Assembly: GCA_964361085.1 (NCBI GenBank)
Contig: CAYHZK010000001.1
Location: 1 to 34,206, forward strand
Reading direction: 5' to 3'
Source: an uncultured Planctomycetales bacterium
Lineage (GTDB): Bacteria > Omnitrophota > Gorgyraeia > Zapsychrales > JANLHA01
Length of the DNA: 34,206 nucleotides
Each line of letters starts with the position of its first letter. The stretch's first letter is position 1. Below, one piece after another: positions 789 to 21,755 of this stretch. The translations under genes and the position numbers were made by a program. The notes under the pieces are model-generated. The model was not told the origin of the DNA. It was given only the letters and a program-made list of their open reading frames with translations, and did no database searches.

Positions 789-3071
789 ATGAGATTATCC
801 GACAACGAAAAACGGGATGCTATCAAGTTGATTCAGGAAGGCAGGCCTTTGCCTGAGAGGTACCGGTTTTTTTTGTTTGAGGATGACCGGGAGGTGGAAT
901 TGGTGTGGAACGGCAAGACGCAGGAGGTCTGCAATCTTGTGCTTCCGTTTCAGACCATCGAGCACATCGACGAGCCCCGCAGCGAGCGGATCAAAAAGGG
1001 CGAATACATCGGAGACCTGTTTGACCCCTCGGGCCGGCAGATCCGCGGCTGGACCAACAAGCTCATCTGGGGCGATAACAAGCTGATTCTTTCCTCGCTC
1101 AAGAACGGCCCCATGCGCCGGGAGATCGAAAAGCAGGGCGGGCTTAAGCTCATCTACATCGACCCGCCGTTTGACGTCGGCGCGGATTTCTCGATGAACG
1201 TTGAGATCGGCGACCCTTCGGCAGGCTCAGGGCAAGTGGAGTCTTTCACCAAAAAACCCTCCGTCATTGAAGAGGTCGCCTACCGCGACACCTGGGGCAA
1301 GGGCGCTGACAGCTTCATCGCGATGATCTACGAACGCCTCAAACTCATGCACGGCCTTTTGGCGGAGGATGGGAGTATTTATGTGCATTGTGATTGGCGT
1401 GTAAACAGTTATATAAAAAATGTCCTTGACGAAATTTTCGGCCCGGTATCTTTCTTAAACGAAATCATCTGGCAAAGAACGGGCGCTCATAATGATGCTG
1501 GCCGTTTTGGTGTTGTTCATGATTCAATCTTCTTTTACTCTAAAACAGAACAATATGTGTTCAACCCAGTATTTATCCCACTATCCGATGAACACTTAAA
1601 GACCCGTTTCAATCAAGTTGAGGAAAGTACAGGTAAACGATTCTTTGCTGGACCTATAACAGCACCGGGCTCCGGCCCTTCTCGAATTTTTAATGGTAAG
1701 AAACTTGCACCACCTAAAGGAAGACATTGGTCGTACTCACAAGAAGGTATCGATGATCTAGAAAAGAGAGGGATGATTTATTATTCAAGTACCGGAACAC
1801 CTTATCTTAAACAATACATGGATGAATACGCCGAACAAGGTAGGCGTGTTCAATCAATATGGGGTGATGTCCTCCCAAGTAAAACAGGTAATGAAGTTTT
1901 AGGCTATCCGACCCAAAAGCCTGAATCGCTGCTTGAACGTATTATTAAGGCCTCTTCCAACGAAGGCGACCTTGTTGCCGAATTCTTCTGCGGTTCGGGA
2001 ACGACGCTCGCCGTCGCCGAGAGGTTGGGGCGCAAATGGATCGGCTCGGACCTCGGGCGGTTCGCGATTCATACGTCCCGCAAGCGGTTGATTCAGGTCC
2101 AGCGGGACATGAAGAAGGACGGCAGGGATTTTCGCGCGTTTGAAATTTTGAACCTCGGCAAGTATGAGCGCGAACACTATGTCAATGCCGGCGATGGCGT
2201 CCGCGAAGAGGAGCGGCGGTATATTTTAAGCAACAAAGAACGGGAGTTTGTCTCTCTCATCCTGTTCGCTTACCATGCCCAGCCCGTGGACTCTTACAAT
2301 ATCTTCGTCGGCAAAAAGCGCGACCGTCTGGTCGCGGTTGGGCCCGTCAGCATGCCGGTTTCATCCGCGTTTGTGGACGAGGCCATCCGGGAAGCCCGCG
2401 TCAACGGGATCACCAAGTTTGATGTGCTGGGGTTTGATTATGAAATGGGTCTGGATTTTTCGGCGTTGAGCCGTCAGGGCGTTGATGTGCAGTTTAAGGT
2501 GATCCCGCGGGAAGTCTTTGACCGCCGCGCCGTTGAGAAGGGGCACGTTAAATTTTATGACGTGGCGTATATCGAGGTCAAGCCGGTCATCAAGGGAAAG
2601 GCAAACAATAAGACAGTCTCCGTTGAATTGTGCGACTTCAGCGTGTTTTATCATCAGGACAGCGTTGAGGAGACCGAAGGCGCGCTGAAAGAAGGCTCCA
2701 GCAAGATTGTGATTGAAAACGGACAGGTCATCAAAGTTTCGAAAGATAAAAAGACCTCCGTTGTGACGAAAGAAATTTTGACGAAAAAATGGACGGACTG
2801 GGTGGATTATTGGGCAGTCGATTTTGATTTTCAAAGCCGCAGGGAGATTGTCCGTTCGGTCGATCCCAGGACCGGCGAAGACAGGGAAGAATGGACCGGC
2901 GGTTATATCTTCGAAAACGAATGGCAGTCCTTCAGGACAAAAAAGGACAGAAAACTCGAACTGACCTCCGCCGAAAAAGAAGTCCCCAAAGGCCGCCGCA
3001 AAATCGCCATCAAGGTCGTCGACATCTTCGGCAACGATACGACGAAGGTGATTGAGGTGAATGTCGCGTGA
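789..3071 (+). CDS. mod: Type III restriction-modification methyltransferase (Mod subunit, beta-class N6A/N4C MTase)
   Basis: 760-aa ORF. N-terminus has 'VELVWNGK...LPFQTIE'. Motif IV 'LIYIDPPFDVGADF' lies upstream of 'GYPTQKPESLLERII' and motif I 'AEFFCGSGTTLAVAERLGRKWIGSD'. This IV...X-I order is typical of Type III Mod. C-terminal tail is 'WAVDFDF..NEWQSFRTKK..KVVDIFGNDT'. A res gene follows downstream. Confidence 0.85.
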   Translation: MRLSDNEKRDAIKLIQEGRPLPERYRFFLFEDDREVELVWNGKTQEVCNLVLPFQTIEHIDEPRSERIKKGEYIGDLFDPSGRQIRGWTNKLIWGDNKLILSSLKNGPMRREIEKQGGLKLIYIDPPFDVGADFSMNVEIGDPSAGSGQVESFTKKPSVIEEVAYRDTWGKGADSFIAMIYERLKLMHGLLAEDGSIYVHCDWRVNSYIKNVLDEIFGPVSFLNEIIWQRTGAHNDAGRFGVVHDSIFFYSKTEQYVFNPVFIPLSDEHLKTRFNQVEESTGKRFFAGPITAPGSGPSRIFNGKKLAPPKGRHWSYSQEGIDDLEKRGMIYYSSTGTPYLKQYMDEYAEQGRRVQSIWGDVLPSKTGNEVLGYPTQKPESLLERIIKASSNEGDLVAEFFCGSGTTLAVAERLGRKWIGSDLGRFAIHTSRKRLIQVQRDMKKDGRDFRAFEILNLGKYEREHYVNAGDGVREEERRYILSNKEREFVSLILFAYHAQPVDSYNIFVGKKRDRLVAVGPVSMPVSSAFVDEAIREARVNGITKFDVLGFDYEMGLDFSALSRQGVDVQFKVIPREVFDRRAVEKGHVKFYDVAYIEVKPVIKGKANNKTVSVELCDFSVFYHQDSVEETEGALKEGSSKIVIENGQVIKVSKDKKTSVVTKEILTKKWTDWVDYWAVDFDFQSRREIVRSVDPRTGEDREEWTGGYIFENEWQSFRTKKDRKLELTSAEKEVPKGRRKIAIKVVDIFGNDTTKVIEVNVA

Positions 3072-4687
3072 CGAAAACAACGCTCGAGCAGTTTGAGAAA
3101 TGGCTTTTAAAAAAAGAAGATGTTGCTTTGGAGTTTAAAGAGGCAAAAAACGGATTTGACGCCAGGCAGTCCCTGCCCGACTATTGCGCCGCGCTTGCCA
3201 ATGAGGGCGGAGGGAAATTGATTTTGGGTGTCGATGATAAGGGGACAGTGGTCGGCACCAAGGCTTTTGATGGCACGGTCAATAAACTATCTCATGAGCT
3301 TTTCACTAAGATAAAAATTCGTGTTGATGTGGAGGAGCTTGGTCATCCTCATGGAAGAGTCTTGATATTCCATGTTCCCGGACGCCTGCGGGGGCAGCGC
3401 GTGAGGTCCACGGGAAAATATCTGTATCCTATGCGCATGGGCGACTCATTAGCCGAGATGGATGATATAAAAACCAGGGAAATATTGAACGAAGATTCGG
3501 CTGATTTCACGGCAATGATCGTGCCGGGGCTGTCTTTTGACGGATTGGATGAGAAAGCGATAGAGCAGTTAAAACAAAAATGGGCTGATGAATCAAAGCG
3601 CAAAGATTATCTTTCCTTCGACGATAAAAAAGTATTGAGGAACATCGGGCTTATCCACGACCACGGCATCACGTATGCCGGGTTGATTTTGCTCGGTAAA
3701 TCCGAAGTCATCACTCGTTATCTGCCCGACGCGGAGATTATTTTTGAATGGAGAAATAACCCCAAACAAACGCATTATGATTTCAGAAAGAACTGGCGGG
3801 CGTCTTTTGCTGGCATCGATGATGAAATATGGAATACCATCAATGCGCGCAACCTTAGGATTCCTTTCCAGCAGGGATTTTTTCAAAGGGAAGTCTGGGC
3901 TTTCGACGAGAAGTCTATTCGCGAGGCTGTCCATAACGCCGTTATGCATCGAGATTATCTTATAAAAGGGAGGTCTATTTTTATAAAGGCGTCTCCGGAG
4001 GAATTTCATATTGAAAGCCCGGGAGGTTTTCCGCCCGGCATTACGCTGGAAAACGTTTTGCATAAGAAAGAATGGCGGAATCGAGTGCTGGCGGAGGCTT
4101 TTGAGAAAATTGGTTTGGCCGAGCGGTCCAGTCAGGGGCTGGATGACATTTTTGAAAAAGCCATTCGTGATGGCAAGGGACTCCCCGATCTTTCCAAAAG
4201 CGATTCCAGCACGGTTTGTTTGAGAATCCCAGCTCAGGTTAAGGATAAAGATTTCATTTTGTATCTTGAACGCATTACCAATGAACGTCAGGTTCATCTG
4301 TCGTTTGAGGAGATTTTTGAACTTGAGAAAATCAGAGAAAGTCAAAAAACAGGTAATATTGAGTTTAAGAACAAATTCTTGCAATTAGGCATCATTGAAC
4401 AGACAGGAAGAACGAAGGGTGCGCGATATATTCTTTCTCACAAATATTATGTTCATAAAGGGAAATCCGGTGTTTATACCCGATTGTTGGGGACATCCAG
4501 AGAATATAAAAAAGAGGTAATATTACAGCATTTACGAAAAAATGAGAAAGGGCTCGCTCGCGACTTTCAAGATATTTTTAATGAATTGCGGGCAACGGAT
4601 GTATCCAACCTTTTGCGAGAATTAAAGCAGGACGGGAAAATCGTTCATGAGGGGAGCAGGAAAACCGGCTATTGGCGGTTAAAATAA
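3068..4687 (+). CDS. AlbA_2 (Schlafen-like) / HATPase_c_4-like / C-terminal winged-helix protein (the 'divergent AAA / putative transcriptional regulator' family)
   Basis: 539-aa ORF. The only plausible start is GTG 3068, inside a GTGA overlap with the mod stop, with GAGGTG 8 nt upstream. N-terminus has 'VALEFKEAKNGF...GGGKLILGVDDKGTVVG' (AlbA_2-like). The middle has 'IREAVHNAVMHRDY...ESPGGFPPGIT...RNRVLAEAFEKIGLAERSSQGLDDI' (HATPase_c_4-like). The C-terminus 'LLRELKQDGKIVHEGSRKTGYWRL' is wHTH-like. GC is about 40% in sampled lines. Confidence 0.7.
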   Translation: MTKTTLEQFEKWLLKKEDVALEFKEAKNGFDARQSLPDYCAALANEGGGKLILGVDDKGTVVGTKAFDGTVNKLSHELFTKIKIRVDVEELGHPHGRVLIFHVPGRLRGQRVRSTGKYLYPMRMGDSLAEMDDIKTREILNEDSADFTAMIVPGLSFDGLDEKAIEQLKQKWADESKRKDYLSFDDKKVLRNIGLIHDHGITYAGLILLGKSEVITRYLPDAEIIFEWRNNPKQTHYDFRKNWRASFAGIDDEIWNTINARNLRIPFQQGFFQREVWAFDEKSIREAVHNAVMHRDYLIKGRSIFIKASPEEFHIESPGGFPPGITLENVLHKKEWRNRVLAEAFEKIGLAERSSQGLDDIFEKAIRDGKGLPDLSKSDSSTVCLRIPAQVKDKDFILYLERITNERQVHLSFEEIFELEKIRESQKTGNIEFKNKFLQLGIIEQTGRTKGARYILSHKYYVHKGKSGVYTRLLGTSREYKKEVILQHLRKNEKGLARDFQDIFNELRATDVSNLLRELKQDGKIVHEGSRKTGYWRLK

Positions 4688-4787
4688 ATTACATTTAAAA
4701 CTAAGCCGCTTTGCGTCTTCTATTTCCATAACATATTGTTATCCATAAAGTTGAGTTATATTTAATTACATTTAAATTACATTAAAT
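4687..4787. repeat. Repeat-dense AT-rich spacer between the AlbA_2-like gene and res
   Basis: 'AATTACATTTAAA' occurs at 4687-4699 and 4764-4776, and a degenerate third copy 'AATTACATTAAA' at 4775-4786 abuts the res ATG. A perfect palindrome ATAACA-TAT-TGTTAT lies at 4728-4742. 'TCCATAA' repeats at 4725-4731 and 4742-4748. Confidence 0.6.
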
Positions 4788-7476
4788 GGCTCTCCACAAA
4801 GATTTCCCCAAAGACAAATTTGCGATTTTAGACCCCGCGGTCCGCTGGTTTCCGGCGGATGAGGCGTTGCGCGAGCAGGGTTATGAGAAATTGCTGCCGC
4901 CTTTTGTGCCGGAATTGCGAAAACAGGTCAAGGCGTGGCGGGATAAGAATTACGAGGGCGCCGGTACAACGTCCCGGGCGCTTTTGAATTGGTGGTTTAA
5001 ATCAGAACATGTGGTTTACGGGGCGGATGGGAATGTCTTTCCGTTCCGCTATTATTTCGCCCAGCGCGAGGCCGTTGAGACCGTGATCTGGCTCTATGAT
5101 GTCGCGGGTGTGCGCAACCGGTATGATCTTCTGCCGTTTGACGCCCTGGGACGGGTCAGTCCCAATATGTTTGATGAAGACTGGCTGCGTTTGGTTATCA
5201 AAATGGCGACGGGGAGCGGCAAGACAAAGGTCATGAGCCTGCTGCTGGCGTGGTCGTATTTTCACAGGATGTATGAGCCGAAGTCGGAATTGTCCCGCAA
5301 TTTTCTTTTTGTCACGCCCAACATCATTGTTCTGGAACGCATTAAGACGGATTTTAACGGTTTAAAGATTTTTTATGAAGACCCTGTTTTGCCGGACAAC
5401 GGATACGAGGGCAGACACTGGGAAGATGATTTTCAGGTCACGCTGCACCTGCAGGATGATCTGACCGCCATTTCTCCGACGGGGAACATCTTTCTGACCA
5501 ACATCCACCGGGTCTACGAAGGGGACGTGAAGGAGCCGTCTTTTCAGGATGAGGATACGGCCGATTATTTTCTGGGGAAGAAGCCGGTCTCAAGGACGAA
5601 TGAGTCTCTTGTGGATTTGAGCGGCATGATCCGCGACATTGATGAGCTTACGGTCATCAACGACGAGGCGCACCATATTCATGATCCCAGGATGGCGTGG
5701 TTCAAATCGATTCAGGATATCCACAACAAGCTGCTGCAAAAGGGCCAACGGATCGCGCTGCAAATCGATTGCACCTCGACGCCGAAGCACAATAACGGCG
5801 GGATCTTTGTGCAGACGGTGGCGGATTACCCTCTGGTGGAGGCGATTCATCAAAATGTCGTCAAGACTCCCGTGCTGCCGGATCAGGCCAGCCGGGCGAA
5901 GCTGCAGGAAAAGCAGAGCGCCATTTTTACGGAGAGATATGAGGATTATATCAACTTGGGGATCGAAGAATGGCGCAAGACTTATCAGGAGCTTGAACCG
6001 ACGGGCAAAAAGGCGATTTTGTTTATCATGACGGATGATACAAAGAACTGCGACGAGGTTCAGGACTATTTGGAACGCCACTACGCCGACTTGAAAGGGA
6101 AAATCCTGACCATTCATACGAACAGAAGCGGGGACATTTCGGAAAAAGTCACAGGCAAGGACAAGGACGAGCTTGACCGGTTAAGAAAACAGGCGAATGA
6201 GATCGACGGATGGGAAAGTCCATATCAGGTGATCGTATCGGTTTTGATGCTCAAAGAAGGATGGGATGTCAAGAATGTGACCACGATTGTTGGGCTTCGT
6301 GCTTATGCGGCGGCCTCCAATATTTTGCCGGAACAGACGCTGGGACGCGGGCTGAGGAGAATGTTTTTTGGCCGGGACGATGTCCCTGAATACGTGAGTG
6401 TCATCGGAACGCCCGCGTTTATGGAGTTTGTCGAGTCGATCAAGGCGGAGGGCGTGGAGCTTGAAAGGCGGCCGATCGGGCCGGGGACCAAACCCGTTAC
6501 TCCAACCGTCATCGAGATCGATCACGGCAACCTAAAGAAAAATATCCAAAAGCTTGATATTGAACTTCCTGTTTTGACGCCGAGGATCCAGCGGGAATAC
6601 AAGAATCTGGCGGACTTGAACGTCTCCGGCTTTCGGCATGAAAAATTGAAAGTCAGACAATTCGGCGAACAGGAACAGCGGGAGATTGTCTTCCGGCATG
6701 TCGTCGAAGAGAAAATCCATCATACGACCATCCTGGAAAGCAATGTTGAACCGGATTATCAGAGCGTTGTCGGTTTTTTTGCCCAAGGCATCATGCGGGA
6801 GCTTCGCCTGTTTGGCTGTTATGACATTGTGTTCGGCAAGGTTAAGGAATTCATTCAGTCCCATCTGTTTGAGTCGCCGGTTGACCTGAATGATAAAAAT
6901 ATTTTACGCAACCTTTCCGAGATTGAAGTCACAAGAAAAATTATTCAGGCATTTAAAACGGGCATCAATGCCTTGACGGTCAGGGATGTCGGCGACGCGG
7001 AAATCAAGAATTTCATCAAGGTCAGCGACAGCCGTCCGTTTGTGGTGACCGACCGGGCCTATCTGGTTCCCAAAAAGAGCGCGTTCAACAGAATTGTGGG
7101 CGACAGCCAATTGGAGCTGGAGTTCGCGGATTTCTTAGAGCGGCTTGGCGACGGTGAAATCATTTCGTACGCGAAAAATTATCCTGAGATTCATTTTAAG
7201 ATTGATTACAAAAACGCCGACGGCACGATCGCCAATTATTACCCTGATTTTTTTGTGAAGGTGGATGAAAAGACGGTTTATATTGTCGAGCCCAAAGGGC
7301 GGGAGGATCTTGACGACCCGTTGAAGATCATGCGTCTGGTTCAGTGGTGCGAGGACGCGAACGGCCGTCAGAAGAAGATCGTTTATAAAATGCTTTACGT
7401 GAAACAGGAAGATTGGGAAAGATTGAGGCCCAGGAACTGGACCGACCTGATCGCCTCCGCGATCAGAAATGTATGA
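4786..7476 (+). CDS. res: Type III restriction enzyme Res subunit (SF2 helicase plus C-terminal PD-(D/E)xK-like nuclease)
   Basis: 896-aa ORF. Walker A 'MATGSGKTK', DEAH box 'VINDEAHHI', motif VI 'EQTLGRGLRR'. The C-terminal 'YYPDFFVKVDEKTVYIVEPKGRED' resembles a PD..(E)xK nuclease core. It lies next to mod. Confidence 0.85.
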   Translation: MALHKDFPKDKFAILDPAVRWFPADEALREQGYEKLLPPFVPELRKQVKAWRDKNYEGAGTTSRALLNWWFKSEHVVYGADGNVFPFRYYFAQREAVETVIWLYDVAGVRNRYDLLPFDALGRVSPNMFDEDWLRLVIKMATGSGKTKVMSLLLAWSYFHRMYEPKSELSRNFLFVTPNIIVLERIKTDFNGLKIFYEDPVLPDNGYEGRHWEDDFQVTLHLQDDLTAISPTGNIFLTNIHRVYEGDVKEPSFQDEDTADYFLGKKPVSRTNESLVDLSGMIRDIDELTVINDEAHHIHDPRMAWFKSIQDIHNKLLQKGQRIALQIDCTSTPKHNNGGIFVQTVADYPLVEAIHQNVVKTPVLPDQASRAKLQEKQSAIFTERYEDYINLGIEEWRKTYQELEPTGKKAILFIMTDDTKNCDEVQDYLERHYADLKGKILTIHTNRSGDISEKVTGKDKDELDRLRKQANEIDGWESPYQVIVSVLMLKEGWDVKNVTTIVGLRAYAAASNILPEQTLGRGLRRMFFGRDDVPEYVSVIGTPAFMEFVESIKAEGVELERRPIGPGTKPVTPTVIEIDHGNLKKNIQKLDIELPVLTPRIQREYKNLADLNVSGFRHEKLKVRQFGEQEQREIVFRHVVEEKIHHTTILESNVEPDYQSVVGFFAQGIMRELRLFGCYDIVFGKVKEFIQSHLFESPVDLNDKNILRNLSEIEVTRKIIQAFKTGINALTVRDVGDAEIKNFIKVSDSRPFVVTDRAYLVPKKSAFNRIVGDSQLELEFADFLERLGDGEIISYAKNYPEIHFKIDYKNADGTIANYYPDFFVKVDEKTVYIVEPKGREDLDDPLKIMRLVQWCEDANGRQKKIVYKMLYVKQEDWERLRPRNWTDLIASAIRNV

Positions 7477-7488
7477 AAGGACATCGTC

Positions 7489-8763
7489 ATGAACATCAGT
7501 CTGGACTTGCAGCACTTGAAAAGATTTGTCGAAAGAAAAGATTTGGACGCCCTGGCTCCCGCCGTCACAAAGGCGCATCAGGATTTGGAAAACCGCACCG
7601 GACCGGGGCAGGAGTTTACCGGATGGCTGGACCTGCCGGTAAAGACGTCCGACGTTTTTCTCAATGAGCTCAAAAAACTTGGCGAAGAGATCCGGGGGTC
7701 TTCCGACTGTCTGGTCTCCATCGGTATCGGCGGCTCCTATATCGGGATACGGGCCTCGCTGGAATTCCTGGTCTCCGATCAAAAACTTCCCATCTATTAC
7801 GCGGGTCACAATTTGAGTTCAACCTACCTTTACTATTTGTTGGAATCACTCAAGGATAAACGGATTACGGTCGTTGTCATTTCAAAATCCGGGACCACGA
7901 CGGAACCGGCCCTGGCGTTTCGCATCATCCAGCAGTTCATGAAGCAAAAATATTCCCCGGCGGAGGCAAGAAAAAGGATCATCTGCATCACCGACGAAAA
8001 GAAGGGCGCCCTGCGCGCGATGGCCGAAAGGGAAGGATATCGCGCTTACTCCATTCCTGACGACGTGGGCGGGCGGTTTTCGATCTTGACCGCGGTTGGA
8101 CTTCTGCCGCTGGCCATTGCCGGCATCGACATCCGCGCGATGATCGCGGGCGCGCGCAAGGCGCAGGAGCATTGTTCGGTCAACGATCTTGGGAAAAACA
8201 TCGCCTATCAGTACGCGGCCGCGCGGTATCTCCTTTATCAACAAGGGAAAGTGATTGAAATCCTGGCGACCTTTTATCAGAGGCTGGCCTTTGTCGAGGA
8301 GTGGTGGAAACAGCTTTTTGGCGAAAGCGAAGGCAAGGACAATAAGGGGATTTTCCCGGCCTCGGTCAATTTCACCGCCGATCTGCATTCGATGGGGCAA
8401 CTGATCCAGGAAGGGCAGAGGAATCTTTTTGAAACCTTTCTCCTGATCAAGGATTCCGGCAAGGCCTTGATTATTCCGGGAGAAGACCATGATCTGGATG
8501 GTTTCAACTGTGTGGCGGGCAAAGACTTGGATTATGTGAACAAACAGGCGTATCAGGCGACCGCCATGGCCCATTATGAAGGGGGGGTGCCGAACATGAG
8601 CATCACCTTAGAGAAGTTTGATGCGTATTCGCTGGGACAGTTATTCTATTTTTTCGAAAAGGCTGTGGCCATCACCGGTTATCTGATGGGAGTCAACCCT
8701 TTTAATCAGCCCGGGGTCGAGGCGTATAAGAGAAAGATGTTCGCTCTGTTGGGAAAACATTAA
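7489..8763 (+). CDS. pgi: Glucose-6-phosphate isomerase (short bacterial type)
   Basis: 424 aa. 'VVVISKSGTTTEP', 'GGRFSILTAVGLLP', 'LFGESEGK' and 'NPFNQPGVEAYK' are PGI signatures. Confidence 0.9.
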   Translation: MNISLDLQHLKRFVERKDLDALAPAVTKAHQDLENRTGPGQEFTGWLDLPVKTSDVFLNELKKLGEEIRGSSDCLVSIGIGGSYIGIRASLEFLVSDQKLPIYYAGHNLSSTYLYYLLESLKDKRITVVVISKSGTTTEPALAFRIIQQFMKQKYSPAEARKRIICITDEKKGALRAMAEREGYRAYSIPDDVGGRFSILTAVGLLPLAIAGIDIRAMIAGARKAQEHCSVNDLGKNIAYQYAAARYLLYQQGKVIEILATFYQRLAFVEEWWKQLFGESEGKDNKGIFPASVNFTADLHSMGQLIQEGQRNLFETFLLIKDSGKALIIPGEDHDLDGFNCVAGKDLDYVNKQAYQATAMAHYEGGVPNMSITLEKFDAYSLGQLFYFFEKAVAITGYLMGVNPFNQPGVEAYKRKMFALLGKH

Positions 8764-18821: not shown

Positions 18822-18851
18822 TCCCACAGTTTGCTCCCCGTTCTCAAATCT

Positions 18852-21755
18852 ATGCTTTGGCGCGCCGAGATAAAAGAAAAAGAAGGTGTTTTTGACGCCT
18901 TGGGAGAAGGCGTCAAAAAAGACATCGAGGATCTGGGTTTGGTCCGTGTCGACGCGGTCCGTGTCGTCCAGGTTTATCTTATCGAGGGCGAGATCAGCGA
19001 ACCGGCGATCGATCTCATCTGCTCGGAACTTCTGACCGATAAAATCACGCAAGACTACAGTTTTTCTTCCGCGGGATCCTGCCGTTTGAAATCCGGCGAC
19101 GGCGATCATGTCGTCGAGATTGCCTACAATCCCGGAGTCATGGATCCGGTGGAGGAATCAACCCTCAAGGGGATTCGCGATTTGGGAATCCCCGCTGTCG
19201 TTTCTGTCCGCACGGCCAGGCAGTACCATCTCAAAGGCCGGCTCTCGCCGGAACATTTTAAGCTCATCACGGAAAAGGTTCTCGCCAATAAGCTGATCCA
19301 GCATGTTGTCAAAGACTTCTCCCCGGGCGAACACAAAAAGGCCGGCGATAGCGGCCCTCGGGATGTCAGGGTTTTTTGGGTGGATCTTCTTAAGGCCTCG
19401 GACCGTCAGTTGATAACATTGAGTGCCAAGGGGCAGCTTTTCCTGAACCTCGCCGAGATGAAGACCATCCAGAAATATTTTCGCGCCCTGGGGCGCAACC
19501 CGACCGATTGCGAACTGGAGACGATTGCCCAGACCTGGAGCGAGCACTGTCATCACAAGACCTTCCGGGGCAACATCCGCTATCAGACGACGGAAAAGGG
19601 CAAAAAGAAAATCAGGCTGATCCGCAATCTTCTCAAATCGACGATCGCCAGGGCCACGTATGACGTCGACAAGTCCTGGTGCGTCTCGGTTTTTCATGAC
19701 AACGCCGGCATCATCAAATTTGATAAAGACCATCATGTTTGTTTCAAGGTCGAAACCCATAATCATCCGTCCGCCCTGGAGCCGTTTGGCGGGGCCAACA
19801 CCGGGATCGGCGGCGTGATCCGGGATATCCTGGGGACGGGGCTGGGGGCCAAACCGGTGTGCAACACGGATGTTTTTTGTTTCGCGCCGCCGACGATGTC
19901 GTCCGACCGGTTGCCGGCCGGCGCTCTTCATCCCAAACGGGTCATGAAGGGGGTTGTCAGCGGTGTCAGGGACTACGGAAACAAAATGGGAATCCCGACG
20001 GTGAACGGCGCGATCGTGTTTGACCCGGGGTTCGCGGGCAATCCGCTGGTGTATTGCGGGACGGTCGGGCTGATCCCCAGGGGCAAAGAAAAAAAACAGG
20101 TGCGCAGGGGAGATCTGGTTGTGGTTGCGGGAGGACGGACCGGCCGCGACGGGATCCATGGGGCGACGTTTTCTTCCGGCGAGTTGACCAGCGAGTCGGA
20201 GGTGGTCTCCTCCGGCGCCGTCCAGATCGGGCATCCCATTCAGGAAAAGAAAGTTTTAGACGCGCTTTTGAAGGCCCGCGATCTGGATCTTTATTCCGCC
20301 ATCACCGACTGCGGGGCCGGAGGGTTGTCGAGCGCCGTCGGAGAGATGGGGAAAGATGTGGGCGCGCGGATTGAGCTTTCGAAAGTGCCGCTCAAGTATC
20401 AGGGGCTGTCCTATGCCGAAATTTGGATTTCCGAGGCGCAGGAACGGATGGTCTTGTCTGTCCCGCCGCGGAAGGTTGATCAACTGCTTAAGGTTTTTGC
20501 CGACGAGAATGTCGAGGCCACCGTCATCGGCGAATTCGACGGCGGCAAGCGGCTTAAAATTTTTTATCACGAATGCCAGGTCTGTGATCTGGATATGAAA
20601 TTTTTGCATGAAGGGATTCCGCAGATCATCAAAGAAGCGGTCTGGGCCAGGCCGCGGCTTAAGAGTCCGCGTTTTTCCGTTTCAGAAAATCTCAACGAGG
20701 ATTTGCTCAACGTCCTTTCTCATTTTAACGTGTGCTCCAAAGAGTGGGTGGTCCGGCAGTACGATCACGAGGTCCAGGGCGGCAGCATCATCAAGCCTTT
20801 TGTCGGCGAACGCGGCGACGGGCCATCGGACGCGGCCGTCATTTTGCCTAAGCTGGGTTCGATGAAGGGGATTGCCGTTTCGAACGGAATCAATGTCCGT
20901 TTCGGCATGATCGATCCTTACTGGATGGCGGCCGGATGCATTGACGAGGCGATCCGCCAGATCATCGCCGTCGGGGGGAACTTAAAACAGATCGCCCTTC
21001 TCGATAATTTTTGCTGGGGCAATCCTGATAAGGCTGATCGGCTTGGGAGCCTTGTGCGTTGCGCCCAAGGTTGCTATGAGATTGCTGTCGGATACGGTGT
21101 CCCGTTTATCTCCGGCAAAGACAGTTTGTATAATGAATACACCCAGGGCAAAAAATCTCTGGCGATCCCCGGCACGATCCTCATTTCGGCCATCGGCGTT
21201 ATTGACGATGTGACGCGCTGTGTCACCATGGATTTTAAAGAGAGCGGAAACCTCATCTATGTGATCGGCGAGACCAGGGAAGAACTGGGCGGATCGATCT
21301 ATTGGGCGACCCGCGACGCGCTGGGGGACTCCGTCCCGCAGGTCGATGCTAAAAAAGGCGCAGAAATTTTTAACGCGGTCTCCCGGGCGGCCAAAAATGG
21401 TTTTGTGAAATCCCTGCATGATTGTTCGGAAGGCGGGCTTGGGGTCGCGCTGGCGGAGATGGCCTTTGCCGGCGGACGGGGCGTCACGGTCCGGTTGGAC
21501 CAGGCGCCCGGCGCGGCGAAACTGCGGAGGGACGATCATGTTTTGTTTTCGGAATCGCATTCGCGTTTTGTCGCCGAGGTCAGGCCGCGGGATCAGAAAC
21601 GTTTTGAGAAAATTTTAGCGGGATCCGCCTTTGGTCTTGTGGGGCGCGTTGAGGACAGTCCCGAGTTTGTGATCTATGGTCTGGATCATGCCGTTTGCGT
21701 CAATCTGCGCCGCGATGATTTGAGAGAGGCCTGGCGGGCGCCTCTGGCCTGGTGA
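18852..21755 (+). CDS. purL: FGAM synthase subunit fusion PurS-PurS-PurL (two tandem PurS-like modules fused to small-type PurL, no glutaminase domain)
   Basis: PurL core motifs 'TWSEHCHHKTF', 'VETHNHPSALEPFGGA' and 'VSNGINVRFG'. About 185 extra N-terminal residues form two PurS-like repeats (see findings). The start is ATG 18852 or TTG 18831. Confidence 0.88.
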   Translation: MLWRAEIKEKEGVFDALGEGVKKDIEDLGLVRVDAVRVVQVYLIEGEISEPAIDLICSELLTDKITQDYSFSSAGSCRLKSGDGDHVVEIAYNPGVMDPVEESTLKGIRDLGIPAVVSVRTARQYHLKGRLSPEHFKLITEKVLANKLIQHVVKDFSPGEHKKAGDSGPRDVRVFWVDLLKASDRQLITLSAKGQLFLNLAEMKTIQKYFRALGRNPTDCELETIAQTWSEHCHHKTFRGNIRYQTTEKGKKKIRLIRNLLKSTIARATYDVDKSWCVSVFHDNAGIIKFDKDHHVCFKVETHNHPSALEPFGGANTGIGGVIRDILGTGLGAKPVCNTDVFCFAPPTMSSDRLPAGALHPKRVMKGVVSGVRDYGNKMGIPTVNGAIVFDPGFAGNPLVYCGTVGLIPRGKEKKQVRRGDLVVVAGGRTGRDGIHGATFSSGELTSESEVVSSGAVQIGHPIQEKKVLDALLKARDLDLYSAITDCGAGGLSSAVGEMGKDVGARIELSKVPLKYQGLSYAEIWISEAQERMVLSVPPRKVDQLLKVFADENVEATVIGEFDGGKRLKIFYHECQVCDLDMKFLHEGIPQIIKEAVWARPRLKSPRFSVSENLNEDLLNVLSHFNVCSKEWVVRQYDHEVQGGSIIKPFVGERGDGPSDAAVILPKLGSMKGIAVSNGINVRFGMIDPYWMAAGCIDEAIRQIIAVGGNLKQIALLDNFCWGNPDKADRLGSLVRCAQGCYEIAVGYGVPFISGKDSLYNEYTQGKKSLAIPGTILISAIGVIDDVTRCVTMDFKESGNLIYVIGETREELGGSIYWATRDALGDSVPQVDAKKGAEIFNAVSRAAKNGFVKSLHDCSEGGLGVALAEMAFAGGRGVTVRLDQAPGAAKLRRDDHVLFSESHSRFVAEVRPRDQKRFEKILAGSAFGLVGRVEDSPEFVIYGLDHAVCVNLRRDDLREAWRAPLAW

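Follow-up and report, generated by a model that had tools for sequence, protein, structure and literature searches.

The PrrC anticodon nuclease is embedded in the EcoprrI Type Ic restriction-modification (R-M) locus, and it is for PrrC only that the R-M complex has been shown to mask the nuclease and an anti-restriction peptide to trigger it. Here we describe a comparable arrangement on contig CAYHZK010000001.1 (assembly GCA_964361085.1), of which positions 1-34,206 of the forward strand, hereafter called the window, were analyzed. In it, a gene for a protein with a Schlafen (Slfn) RNase domain, a GHKL ATPase domain and two winged helices (hereafter the middle gene) lies between the mod and res genes of a Type III-like R-M system. 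The middle protein resembles PrrC, as well as RloC, in being encoded as an RNase gene within an R-M operon, in combining the nuclease with an NTPase regulatory domain, and in its presumed role as a latent, translation-blocking backup that comes into play once restriction has been overcome. PrrC has an ABC-type ATPase, a HEPN nuclease and a Type I host system, whereas the middle protein has GHKL and Schlafen domains and a Type III-like host system, so that the two are analogues and not homologues.

The closest described relatives are found among the prokaryotic Schlafens, which were shown to be anti-phage tRNases in two studies (PMC13056530, PMC13462974), the first of which gives their active site as Ex4(E/D)xK and mentions PrrC only as the first antiviral tRNase. 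The commonest Slfn architectures are Slfn-HisKinase (34%) and Slfn-HisKinase-HTH (19%), where HTH stands for helix-turn-helix (PMC13056530). With 59% of Schlafen proteins carrying a GHKL domain, the Slfn-GHKL-HTH proteins form a large share of prokaryotic Schlafens. In a 2026 preprint the SLFN and GHKL pair was named 'Schlatpase' and dissected, the GHKL domain's binding of ATP being found to drive a tetramerization which builds the SLFN nuclease (bioRxiv 10.64898/2026.05.29.728809). A tight association with the R-M, BREX and type I CRISPR systems has furthermore been described for Slfn-ATPase(-DNA-binding) homologues (PMC13462974), and proteins made of a Schlafen domain, a minimal HisK and a winged helix-turn-helix (wHTH) occur inside the BREX loci of 1017 taxa or more, and in that setting were called backup suicidal effectors (PMC12839542). 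An earlier note on this DNA, written from the sequence alone, held that such proteins have no assigned function, a statement made outdated by these four sources.

Presence inside modification-based defense operons is already known, for BREX and, generically, for R-M. The BREX-embedded Schlafen-HisK-wHTH proteins (PMC12839542) and the R-M-associated Slfn-ATPase cluster 7 (PMC13462974) share both this setting and the architecture of the middle protein; the difference is that the host here is a Type III-like mod-res pair, and that the gene sits exactly at the junction and takes over its coupling site. No paper combining Schlafen with 'type III restriction' was found in the literature searched. 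New here are the Type III-like junction arrangement and its frequency, with the reservation that the published 'R-M clusters' may be the same arrangement. Also new are the finding that cargo genes concentrate at this junction, making it a hot spot, the take-over of a coupling site in the tail of Mod, and a repeat array 3' of the gene which tracks the second winged helix (wHTH2) and of which no description was found in the literature.

We lean towards the reading that the middle gene encodes a latent Schlafen RNase, an accessory to the Type III-like R-M cassette at whose junction it lies, which would form a second, abortive-infection-type layer of defense. In logic, though not in fold, it would resemble PrrC in the EcoprrI locus and the Schlafens embedded in BREX loci. 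The gene is a recurrent but optional add-on, as it is found without the R-M genes and the R-M genes are found without it. The features of the cassette, all on the plus strand, are given below with their positions in the window and their lengths in nucleotides (nt) or amino acids (aa).

789-3071, plus strand: mod, 760 aa, a Type III-like beta-class N6-adenine DNA methyltransferase with DPPF (motif IV) ahead of FxGxG (motif I).
3054-3059, plus strand: Shine-Dalgarno-like GAGGTG, formed by the ...EV codons conserved at the C-terminus of Mod and lying 8 nt ahead of the middle-gene GTG.
3068-4687, plus strand: the middle gene, 539 aa, coding for a predicted Schlafen RNase domain, a GHKL ATPase and a pair of winged helices ('Schlatpase-HTH' class).
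3116-3445, plus strand: SLFN_AlbA_2 domain, residues 17-126, with Ex4ExK as E17-DVAL-E22-F-K24 (nt 3116-3139).
3923-4210, plus strand: GHKL (HATPase_c_4) ATP-binding region, from ExxxN (E286...N290, nt 3923-3937) through ESPGG, WRNR and ERSSQG; the Pfam match covers residues 301-381.
4247-4450, plus strand: winged helix 1 (wHTH1), residues about 394-461, from AlphaFold models and Foldseek winged-helix matches.
4499-4681, plus strand: winged helix 2 (wHTH2), residues about 478-538, with the recognition helix at 509-521 (nt 4592-4630), including R517; predicted local distance difference test (pLDDT) of the model 80.
4678-4699, plus strand: repeat cluster A, with the sequence GTTAAAATAAATTACATTTAAA; it overlaps the TAA stop codon (4685-4687) and has its core unit TTACATTTAA at 4689-4698.
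4688-4785, plus strand: spacer, 98 nt, 23.5% GC.
4755-4787, plus strand: repeat cluster B, three units 10-11 nt apart at 4756-4765 (degenerate), 4766-4775 and 4777-4786.
4786-7476, plus strand: res, 896 aa, with a superfamily 2 (SF2) helicase-type ATPase and a C-terminal PD-(D/E)xK nuclease; Type III-like.

All three genes are intact open reading frames (ORFs). What the earlier note had read from the letters agrees with the sequence, i.e. the mod stop at 3071, the 539-aa ORF starting at GTG 3068, the GTGA overlap and the GAGGTG 8 nt upstream, as well as the motifs that it quoted for Mod, Res and the middle protein.

A Pfam scan of the middle protein found only two families, both above their gathering cutoffs: SLFN_AlbA_2 (PF04326; residues 17-126, 47.4 bits against 25.3, E-value 3.2e-12) and HATPase_c_4 (PF13749; residues 301-381, 45.1 bits against 26, E-value 9.9e-12). 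The residues E17, E22 and K24 of the Ex4ExK motif, and E286 and N290 of the GHKL ExxxN motif, are invariant in 22 homologues. By motif only, E286 and N290 were equated with RzAgo E314 and N318, which coordinate Mg-ATP (bioRxiv 10.64898/2026.05.29.728809). Foldseek and hidden Markov model (HMM) matches were obtained to the nuclease domains of human and rat Schlafens (SLFN12, 13, 14, 11 and 5), and the uncharacterised homologue PDB 3LMM (DIP2311) matches over the full length (Foldseek 2e-19, HMM 9e-21). The full-length AlphaFold model is mediocre (pLDDT 66, predicted TM-score 0.35), with a badly modeled GHKL core, and for this reason no conclusion on the ATP site or on an oligomer is drawn from it. 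When residues 385-539, the C-terminal 155, were modeled separately, they formed two tandem winged helices (pLDDT 80), with winged-helix matches in Foldseek at probability 1.0 and weak E-values, among them the centromere-binding protein AspA. The AlbA_2, HATPase_c_4 and winged-helix assignment of the earlier note is upheld by these searches. Having the SLFN_AlbA_2 domain, the Ex4(E/D)xK site, a GHKL domain with ExxxN and a C-terminal HTH, the middle protein belongs by its sequence to the published Schlafen-GHKL-HTH ('Schlatpase') class. It is like the Slfn-HisKinase-HTH proteins and 3LMM in both domains, in the two motifs, in the C-terminal HTH and in a length of about 540 aa, and differs in that the HTH here consists of two tandem winged helices accompanied by the 3' repeat array.

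The two flanking genes were assigned in the same way. Mod, in which DPPF precedes FFCGSGTT, matches Pfam N6_N4_Mtase (1.3e-42), has PADLOC MTase_III as its best PADLOC model (1.8e-115), and matches solved Type III Mods in a PDB sequence search, i.e. 6K0W (7e-16) and the EcoP15I Mod 4ZCF (1e-13). It is, as in known Type III systems, a beta-class N6-adenine methyltransferase related to their Mods. Res carries the motifs KMATGSGKT, VINDEAHH, QTLGRGLRR and a C-terminal PD...EPK, which by sequence make it a helicase-like ATPase of SF2 that carries a PD-(D/E)xK nuclease at its C-terminus, again as expected of Type III. Its nuclease residues P820, D821, E835 and K837 are invariant in 16 Res orthologues, as are the Walker A and DEAH helicase residues, and it matches Pfam ResIII (3.4e-14) and PADLOC REase_III (4e-23). 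It falls below the curated NCBIfam cutoffs (266 bits, 5.9e-79, against 800 for the BPTD_3080 family; 19.7 against 564 for PRK15483), and a PDB sequence search of Res gave no match, EcoP15I Res included; for these two reasons we use the term 'Type III-like'. The window departs from a two-gene mod-res layout in having three genes. Biochemically, Type III systems are characterized by ATP-dependent cleavage for which two unmethylated sites in inverse orientation are required. A side observation on mod is that its GC content falls to about 40% at window positions 1400-1800, between motif IV and motif I, which is where the target-recognition domain would lie; the specificity region of mod may have been exchanged.

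The manner in which the gene is joined to mod becomes apparent when loci with and without it are compared. The labels L001-L077 denote loci of Slfn homologues, and L078-L157 loci found from the Res side. The tail of Mod is conserved as ...DIFGNDT.K.(I/V)EV, and its E-V codons read GAGGTG, or GAGGTT as a variant. In two-gene relatives (L079, L084, L093) this hexamer lies just upstream of the res ATG, whereas in the window and in L158, L002, L041 and L044 it lies ahead of the start of the Schlafen gene, there being a 4-nt overlap of that start with the mod stop; in other loci the mod-Slfn gap is a few bases. Judged as a Shine-Dalgarno-like sequence, the hexamer would serve whichever gene comes next, i.e. 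res in two-gene loci and otherwise the cargo. Since the Schlafen gene occupies the position that res has in the two-gene relatives, it takes over the Shine-Dalgarno site in the Mod tail. Its res gene is pushed 1.7 kb downstream, behind the AT-rich spacer, and no Shine-Dalgarno sequence was found ahead of res in the window. The middle-gene GTG (3068-3070) overlaps the mod stop TGA (3069-3071) as GTGA. It is the first in-frame start past the upstream stop, and it is taken to be the correct one because homologues align from residue 1-4 onward. Translational coupling to mod, as claimed in the earlier note, is a plausible and reasonable deduction from the overlap, the Shine-Dalgarno-like hexamer and their recurrence in the four other loci, and it keeps that standing.

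The family is a large one, and its conservation is unusually high. A scoring of 8000 candidates gave 2110 family members at E<=1e-5; the best 120 homologues are all at least 58% identical to the middle protein, 504-606 aa long and spread over bacterial phyla. A scan of one genome per species yielded 77 Slfn loci, distributed over Desulfobacterota, Nitrospirota, Planctomycetota, Omnitrophota, Patescibacteria, Actinomycetota, Spirochaetes, Elusimicrobia and the archaeal Methanoperedens. Orthologous mod (51-68% identical) and/or res (53-67%) genes, or remnants of these, adjoin the Slfn gene in 27 of the 77. The order mod-Slfn-res, on one strand as in the window, was found in 15 complete loci, and distant mod or res relatives in other orders in a further six. 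Five further homologues were looked up in their assemblies, and all adjoin a methyltransferase and/or a ResIII gene: four sit between a methyltransferase gene and a large downstream gene (ResIII in three), and the fifth has only a downstream ResIII. Around four of the five there are other defense genes, namely CBASS, BrxR, OLD-like, AbiE and nSTAND. By these counts, the arrangement described in the earlier note recurs in many phyla.

Several loci of this family have further features of their own. In L160, from the complete genome of Ca. Jettenia (CP091278, 1-12434), the order methyltransferase, a 127-aa ORF, Slfn and ResIII occurs beside a BrxR-like WYL regulator and a CBASS operon with SMODS, SAVED and Cap2-like genes, making this locus a clear defense island. 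Extra genes beside the Slfn gene encode an AAA_21/SMC-like protein in L035 and a DUF488 protein in L015 and L064. In L003 (9346-11061) and L067 (9609-11090), the main Slfn gene is followed a few kb downstream by a second, distant homologue of the middle protein (23-26% identical in BLASTP). On Acidovorax carolinensis plasmids, the genes of distant homologues (H1-H3; 29% identical, with the annotation 'ATP-binding protein') either abut or overlap the gene for a Type I restriction S subunit, an arrangement which fits a general embedding of this protein class in R-M loci.

The same distribution bears on the possibility that the gene and its 3' array are a selfish or independently selected mobile module, possibly toxin-like, which rides in a permissive and well-expressed junction and has no functional tie to restriction. 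We regard this as unlikely, with evidence on both sides. It would suit the 51-70% identical homologues in many bacterial phyla and in Methanoperedens, as it would the more distant homologues on plasmids and in phage or satellite records. In a neighbor-joining (NJ) tree of Slfn, a quick distance tree that carries no support values, R-M-linked and stand-alone members are interspersed. The gene is also consistently lower in GC than the DNA around it. Over its whole length the middle gene has a GC content of 44.3%, compared to 50.6% in mod and 50.5% in res, so that the contrast described in the earlier note has the right direction and was overstated in size (about 40% against 57-58%). A deficit averaging about 4.5 points is seen relative to mod in 21 of 23 loci, to res in 18 of 21 and to flanking DNA in 64 of 74. 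Because the same offset recurs across related loci, low GC is a property of the gene family and not a mark of recent arrival; recent insertion, argued from GC, was accordingly rejected, the deficit being present in nearly all loci, stand-alone copies included. Against a hitch-hiking module stand the absence of a flanking recombinase, transposase or terminal repeats (the repeats are at the 3' end only), and the precise, recurrent placement with a 4-nt overlap with mod, which together with the partner frequency of 27/77 argues that the combination has been selected for.

Counted from the Res side, the picture is that of an optional insertion. A metagenome scan with a Res profile gave 80 loci, 50 of them informative. 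The plain two-gene form, with a mod-res gap of 2-70 nt, accounts for 28 of these, and 21 have a gap of 330-1960 nt. The remaining one (L087) has a distant Slfn-HATPase_c_4 gene at the mod-res junction, and the window-type Slfn gene occurs in none of the 50. Where the gapped loci were scanned, the cargo was found on the same strand and included NYN(+PLD), DUF3800, Fic, Bro-N, KilA-N, HTH_3-Peptidase_M78 with DUF4411, GIY-YIG and AAA_15/21 ATPases. In this R-M family the mod-res junction is a hot spot at which optional accessory genes are found, the Schlafen gene being one of them, and most of this cargo has, by sequence, domains typical of abortive infection or toxins. The range of unrelated genes taken up by the junction is what a hitch-hiking module would lead one to expect, but the predominance of defense and abortive-infection domains points instead to a functional theme. 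The closest Res relatives of the window, L084 (Res 85%, Mod 71%; gap 5 nt) and L078 (Res 82%), lack the Slfn gene. As the two-gene form is also the commonest, the gene looks inserted between mod and res, as the earlier note had proposed. In an NJ tree of Res, again one that carries no support values, the Slfn-linked sequences are interspersed and do not form one clade. A single origin of the three-gene cassette was considered and is unsupported by either the Slfn or the Res NJ tree.

These counts also bear on a stricter view, namely that the middle protein is a third subunit needed for restriction or modification. The translational coupling with mod and the gene order conserved in 15 complete loci are in keeping with it. 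It is nevertheless strongly disfavored, and we give it hardly any credence, since the closest relative L084 does without the gene, 28 of 50 informative relatives are two-gene systems, 50 of the 77 Slfn loci have no adjoining orthologous mod or res, and the Slfn-linked Res sequences are not one clade. The 'functional third component' of the earlier note was too strong a term for the same reason, as the gene and the R-M system each often occur without the other: about 60% of the homologues are without this R-M, and most of the R-M relatives are without the gene.

A further feature of the locus is the repeat array that follows the gene. In the window, a 22-nt direct repeat is found at 4678-4699 and 4755-4776 (86% identical), with a further unit at 4773-4786, confirming the 98-nt, repeat-rich AT spacer before res reported in the earlier note. 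The array comprises about four units, in two clusters spaced 77 nt apart, and its final unit reaches into the res ATG, overlapping the A. A two-cluster architecture of this kind is seen 3' of the gene in most homologues, whether embedded or stand-alone. The first cluster consists of one to several tandem direct repeats of 10-11 nt which overlap or abut the stop codon. Then come about 50-60 nt of AT-rich DNA and, usually at a distance of 70-77 nt from the first cluster, a second one made of the same unit. In 24 of 73 loci the two zones share an exact repeat of 11 nt or more; the controls gave 2 of 332 for other gene ends and 4 of 1460 for shuffled sequences (p = 1e-16). The units are on one strand only and occur nowhere else in the loci or in the 34-kb window, and none were found upstream of the Slfn gene or of mod, in the other loci included. 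The distant Slfn-GHKL gene in L087 has its own version of the array. As the repeats come after the stop codon in stand-alone loci as well as in R-M loci, the spacer is part of the Schlafen gene's module and not of res. A second AATTAGTTAAT set, with about 76 nt spacing, was observed in L076 about 5.6 kb upstream of the stop of its fragmented Slfn gene and may be what is left of another copy.

Two clusters of direct repeats are also known from plasmid R1, where parC, bound by ParR, has two clusters of 11-bp direct repeats flanking a promoter. The likeness to parC, and to iterons bound by winged-helix proteins, lies in direct repeats of about 11 bp, helically phased, which flank an AT-rich core in two clusters, and in a presumed winged-helix binder; unlike those systems, the cassette has no partition or replication genes, and the analogy is architectural only. 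In ToxIN-like (Type III toxin-antitoxin) systems, tandem RNA repeats of about 34-36 nt lie upstream of an endoRNase toxin gene. The units here are of 10-11 nt, downstream and in two clusters, and the RNA fold has a z score of -0.52. Other identities for the spacer were tried as well. As an RNA element it was rejected, since the fold of 4670-4800 is not better than that of shuffled sequences and no Rfam match was found at gathering or at E<=1. The ends of a mobile element were rejected likewise, the unit being found nowhere else in the window and not upstream of the gene or mod, with no recombinase nearby. A consensus scan of 4688-4785 for a promoter or terminator found none, and spacers hand-aligned on cluster B showed TTGA-like hexamers at inconsistent distances; for these two reasons no promoter is claimed.

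The repeat unit varies by locus, and does so together with the protein. It is TTACATTTAA in the window and elsewhere TAAATCTATT, TTCTAGACCAT, TTAGATGAA or AATTAGTTAAT, among others. The recognition helix of wHTH2 follows the pattern SN(L/I)L(R/Q)EL(K/R) at residues 509-521. Of 13 loci with R517, 12 have at least two ACAT within 130 nt past the stop, compared to 2 of 36 with Q517, where TAGA, TTAG and TCTA dominate (p = 2e-7 and 1e-4 for the R/Q comparisons). Two loci, L019 and L022, encode proteins which are near-identical through wHTH1 and differ in wHTH2 as well as in repeat type (TACAT in one, TTAGTTAAT in the other), which looks like a recombinational swap of a 3' module made of wHTH2 and the repeats. 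Such recombination of the 3' module would also be in line with the hitch-hiking possibility. An NJ tree of wHTH2 sorts the loci by repeat type better than a tree of the N-terminal part. The single-residue pattern holds across several clades and for this reason indicates direct recognition; we infer that wHTH2 would read the repeat array via residue 517.

A DNA-binding protein with likely sites immediately upstream of res raises the question of control. C proteins are Xre-type HTH dimers of about 80-100 aa which bind palindromic C-boxes upstream of their own gene. The middle protein might correspondingly be, in the main, a C-protein-like DNA-binding regulator, in which wHTH2 acts on the repeats to set the timing or level of Res relative to Mod, while its Schlafen and ATPase domains would serve for sensing or regulation. 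In the window, cluster B abuts or overlaps the res ATG, and in most of the mod-Slfn-res loci in which it could be placed its distance upstream of this ATG is 0-25 nt; res in the window has lost the Mod-tail Shine-Dalgarno sequence of its two-gene relatives, and the R517/Q517 contrast and the L019/L022 pair speak for a protein fitted to its repeats. All of this would agree with a regulator, and yet we find it distinctly improbable that regulation is the main function. A like repeat architecture follows stand-alone copies which have no downstream res, and repeats are absent upstream of mod and of the Slfn gene. The nuclease and ATPase residues are invariant, beyond the needs of a regulator. Among the relatives, 28 of 50 are plain mod-res pairs, and the other cargo of the junction (NYN, Fic, GIY-YIG and others) is not regulatory. 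The resemblance to C-protein systems, i.e. an operon-encoded DNA-binding protein with likely sites immediately ahead of res, ends there, since the middle protein has 539 aa and several domains and is not a small Xre-type HTH, and since the repeats are direct, 3' of the gene and present without res, not palindromic C-boxes; a consensus promoter was not found in the spacer either. The wHTH control of res suggested in the earlier note may survive as a secondary effect, given that the repeats abut the res ATG and track wHTH2, although they also occur where there is no res.

For the accessory nuclease, our preferred reading, the following scheme can be proposed. The middle protein would be co-translated or co-expressed with Mod, and its Schlafen domain would act as a latent RNase, probably a tRNase, which backs up restriction. 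Its wHTH2 would bind the array encoded behind its own gene, and about four units in two clusters would fit a tetramer looping the AT-rich spacer. Array binding would probably also tune res expression, because the last repeat unit overlaps the res start codon. The nuclease may be triggered when DNA binding is lost, when restriction fails, or by a phage product. A bolder version, which we consider possible and rather doubtful, is that the whole class with Slfn, GHKL and two winged helices is kept in check by self-encoded iterons of 10-11 bp, which would co-evolve with the recognition helix of the last winged helix (R517 with ACAT, Q517 with TAGA), with an ATP-dependent tetramer parked on both clusters. 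In Type III cassettes this complex would sit on the res start and tie Res output to the arming of a suicidal tRNase, and the mod-res junction would be a general docking site for backup effectors.

Several observations weigh against a role as a backup nuclease. In the literature searched, no experimental RNase activity or phage defense was found for any Slfn-HisKinase(-HTH) protein. When seven Enterobacterales systems were tested, only DUF262 and Ig-like fusions gave defense, and the tested HisKinase fusion(s) gave none against that phage panel (PMC13056530). About 60% of the homologous loci, i.e. the 50 of 77 without an adjoining orthologous mod or res, are without this R-M. In 47 loci with no gene of the mod or res families, the neighbors within two genes on either side are diverse and mostly non-defense, which makes a non-immune role possible; among 129 neighbors of stand-alone copies, covering two genes on either side only, Pfam and PADLOC found few matches to defense genes. 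Co-location and coupling with mod are no proof of functional coupling. Coding region and repeats are less than 200 bp apart, and physical linkage could partly account for the tracking of repeats by wHTH2. The poor full-length model, with its badly modeled GHKL core, counts on the same side.

The locus and its relatives form a compact and naturally coupled three-gene cassette in which it can be asked whether a Schlafen-GHKL-HTH protein backs up restriction. As handles it offers a candidate DNA ligand at 4678-4787 and a candidate specificity residue, R517, with a predicted swap to Q together with TAGA-type repeats. The two-gene and alternative-cargo versions of this R-M family are natural controls. 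The Type III-like junction, seen as a hot spot for defense genes, should furthermore be useful for mining new abortive-infection genes.

As to its surroundings, the 6.7-kb cassette lies on a single strand between mnmA, which ends at 785, and pgi, which starts at 7489, with gaps of 3 nt and 12 nt. At its edges (783-791 and 7474-7491), attachment-site-like repeats or a nearby recombinase were not seen, and no tRNA or tmRNA was found in the window. The remainder of the window holds housekeeping genes, e.g. purine synthesis genes, glyA, a CCA-adding enzyme and hemN. One of the purine synthesis genes, at 18831-21755, is a 974-aa ORF for a purL-like FGAM synthase with a PurS domain fused at its N-terminus.

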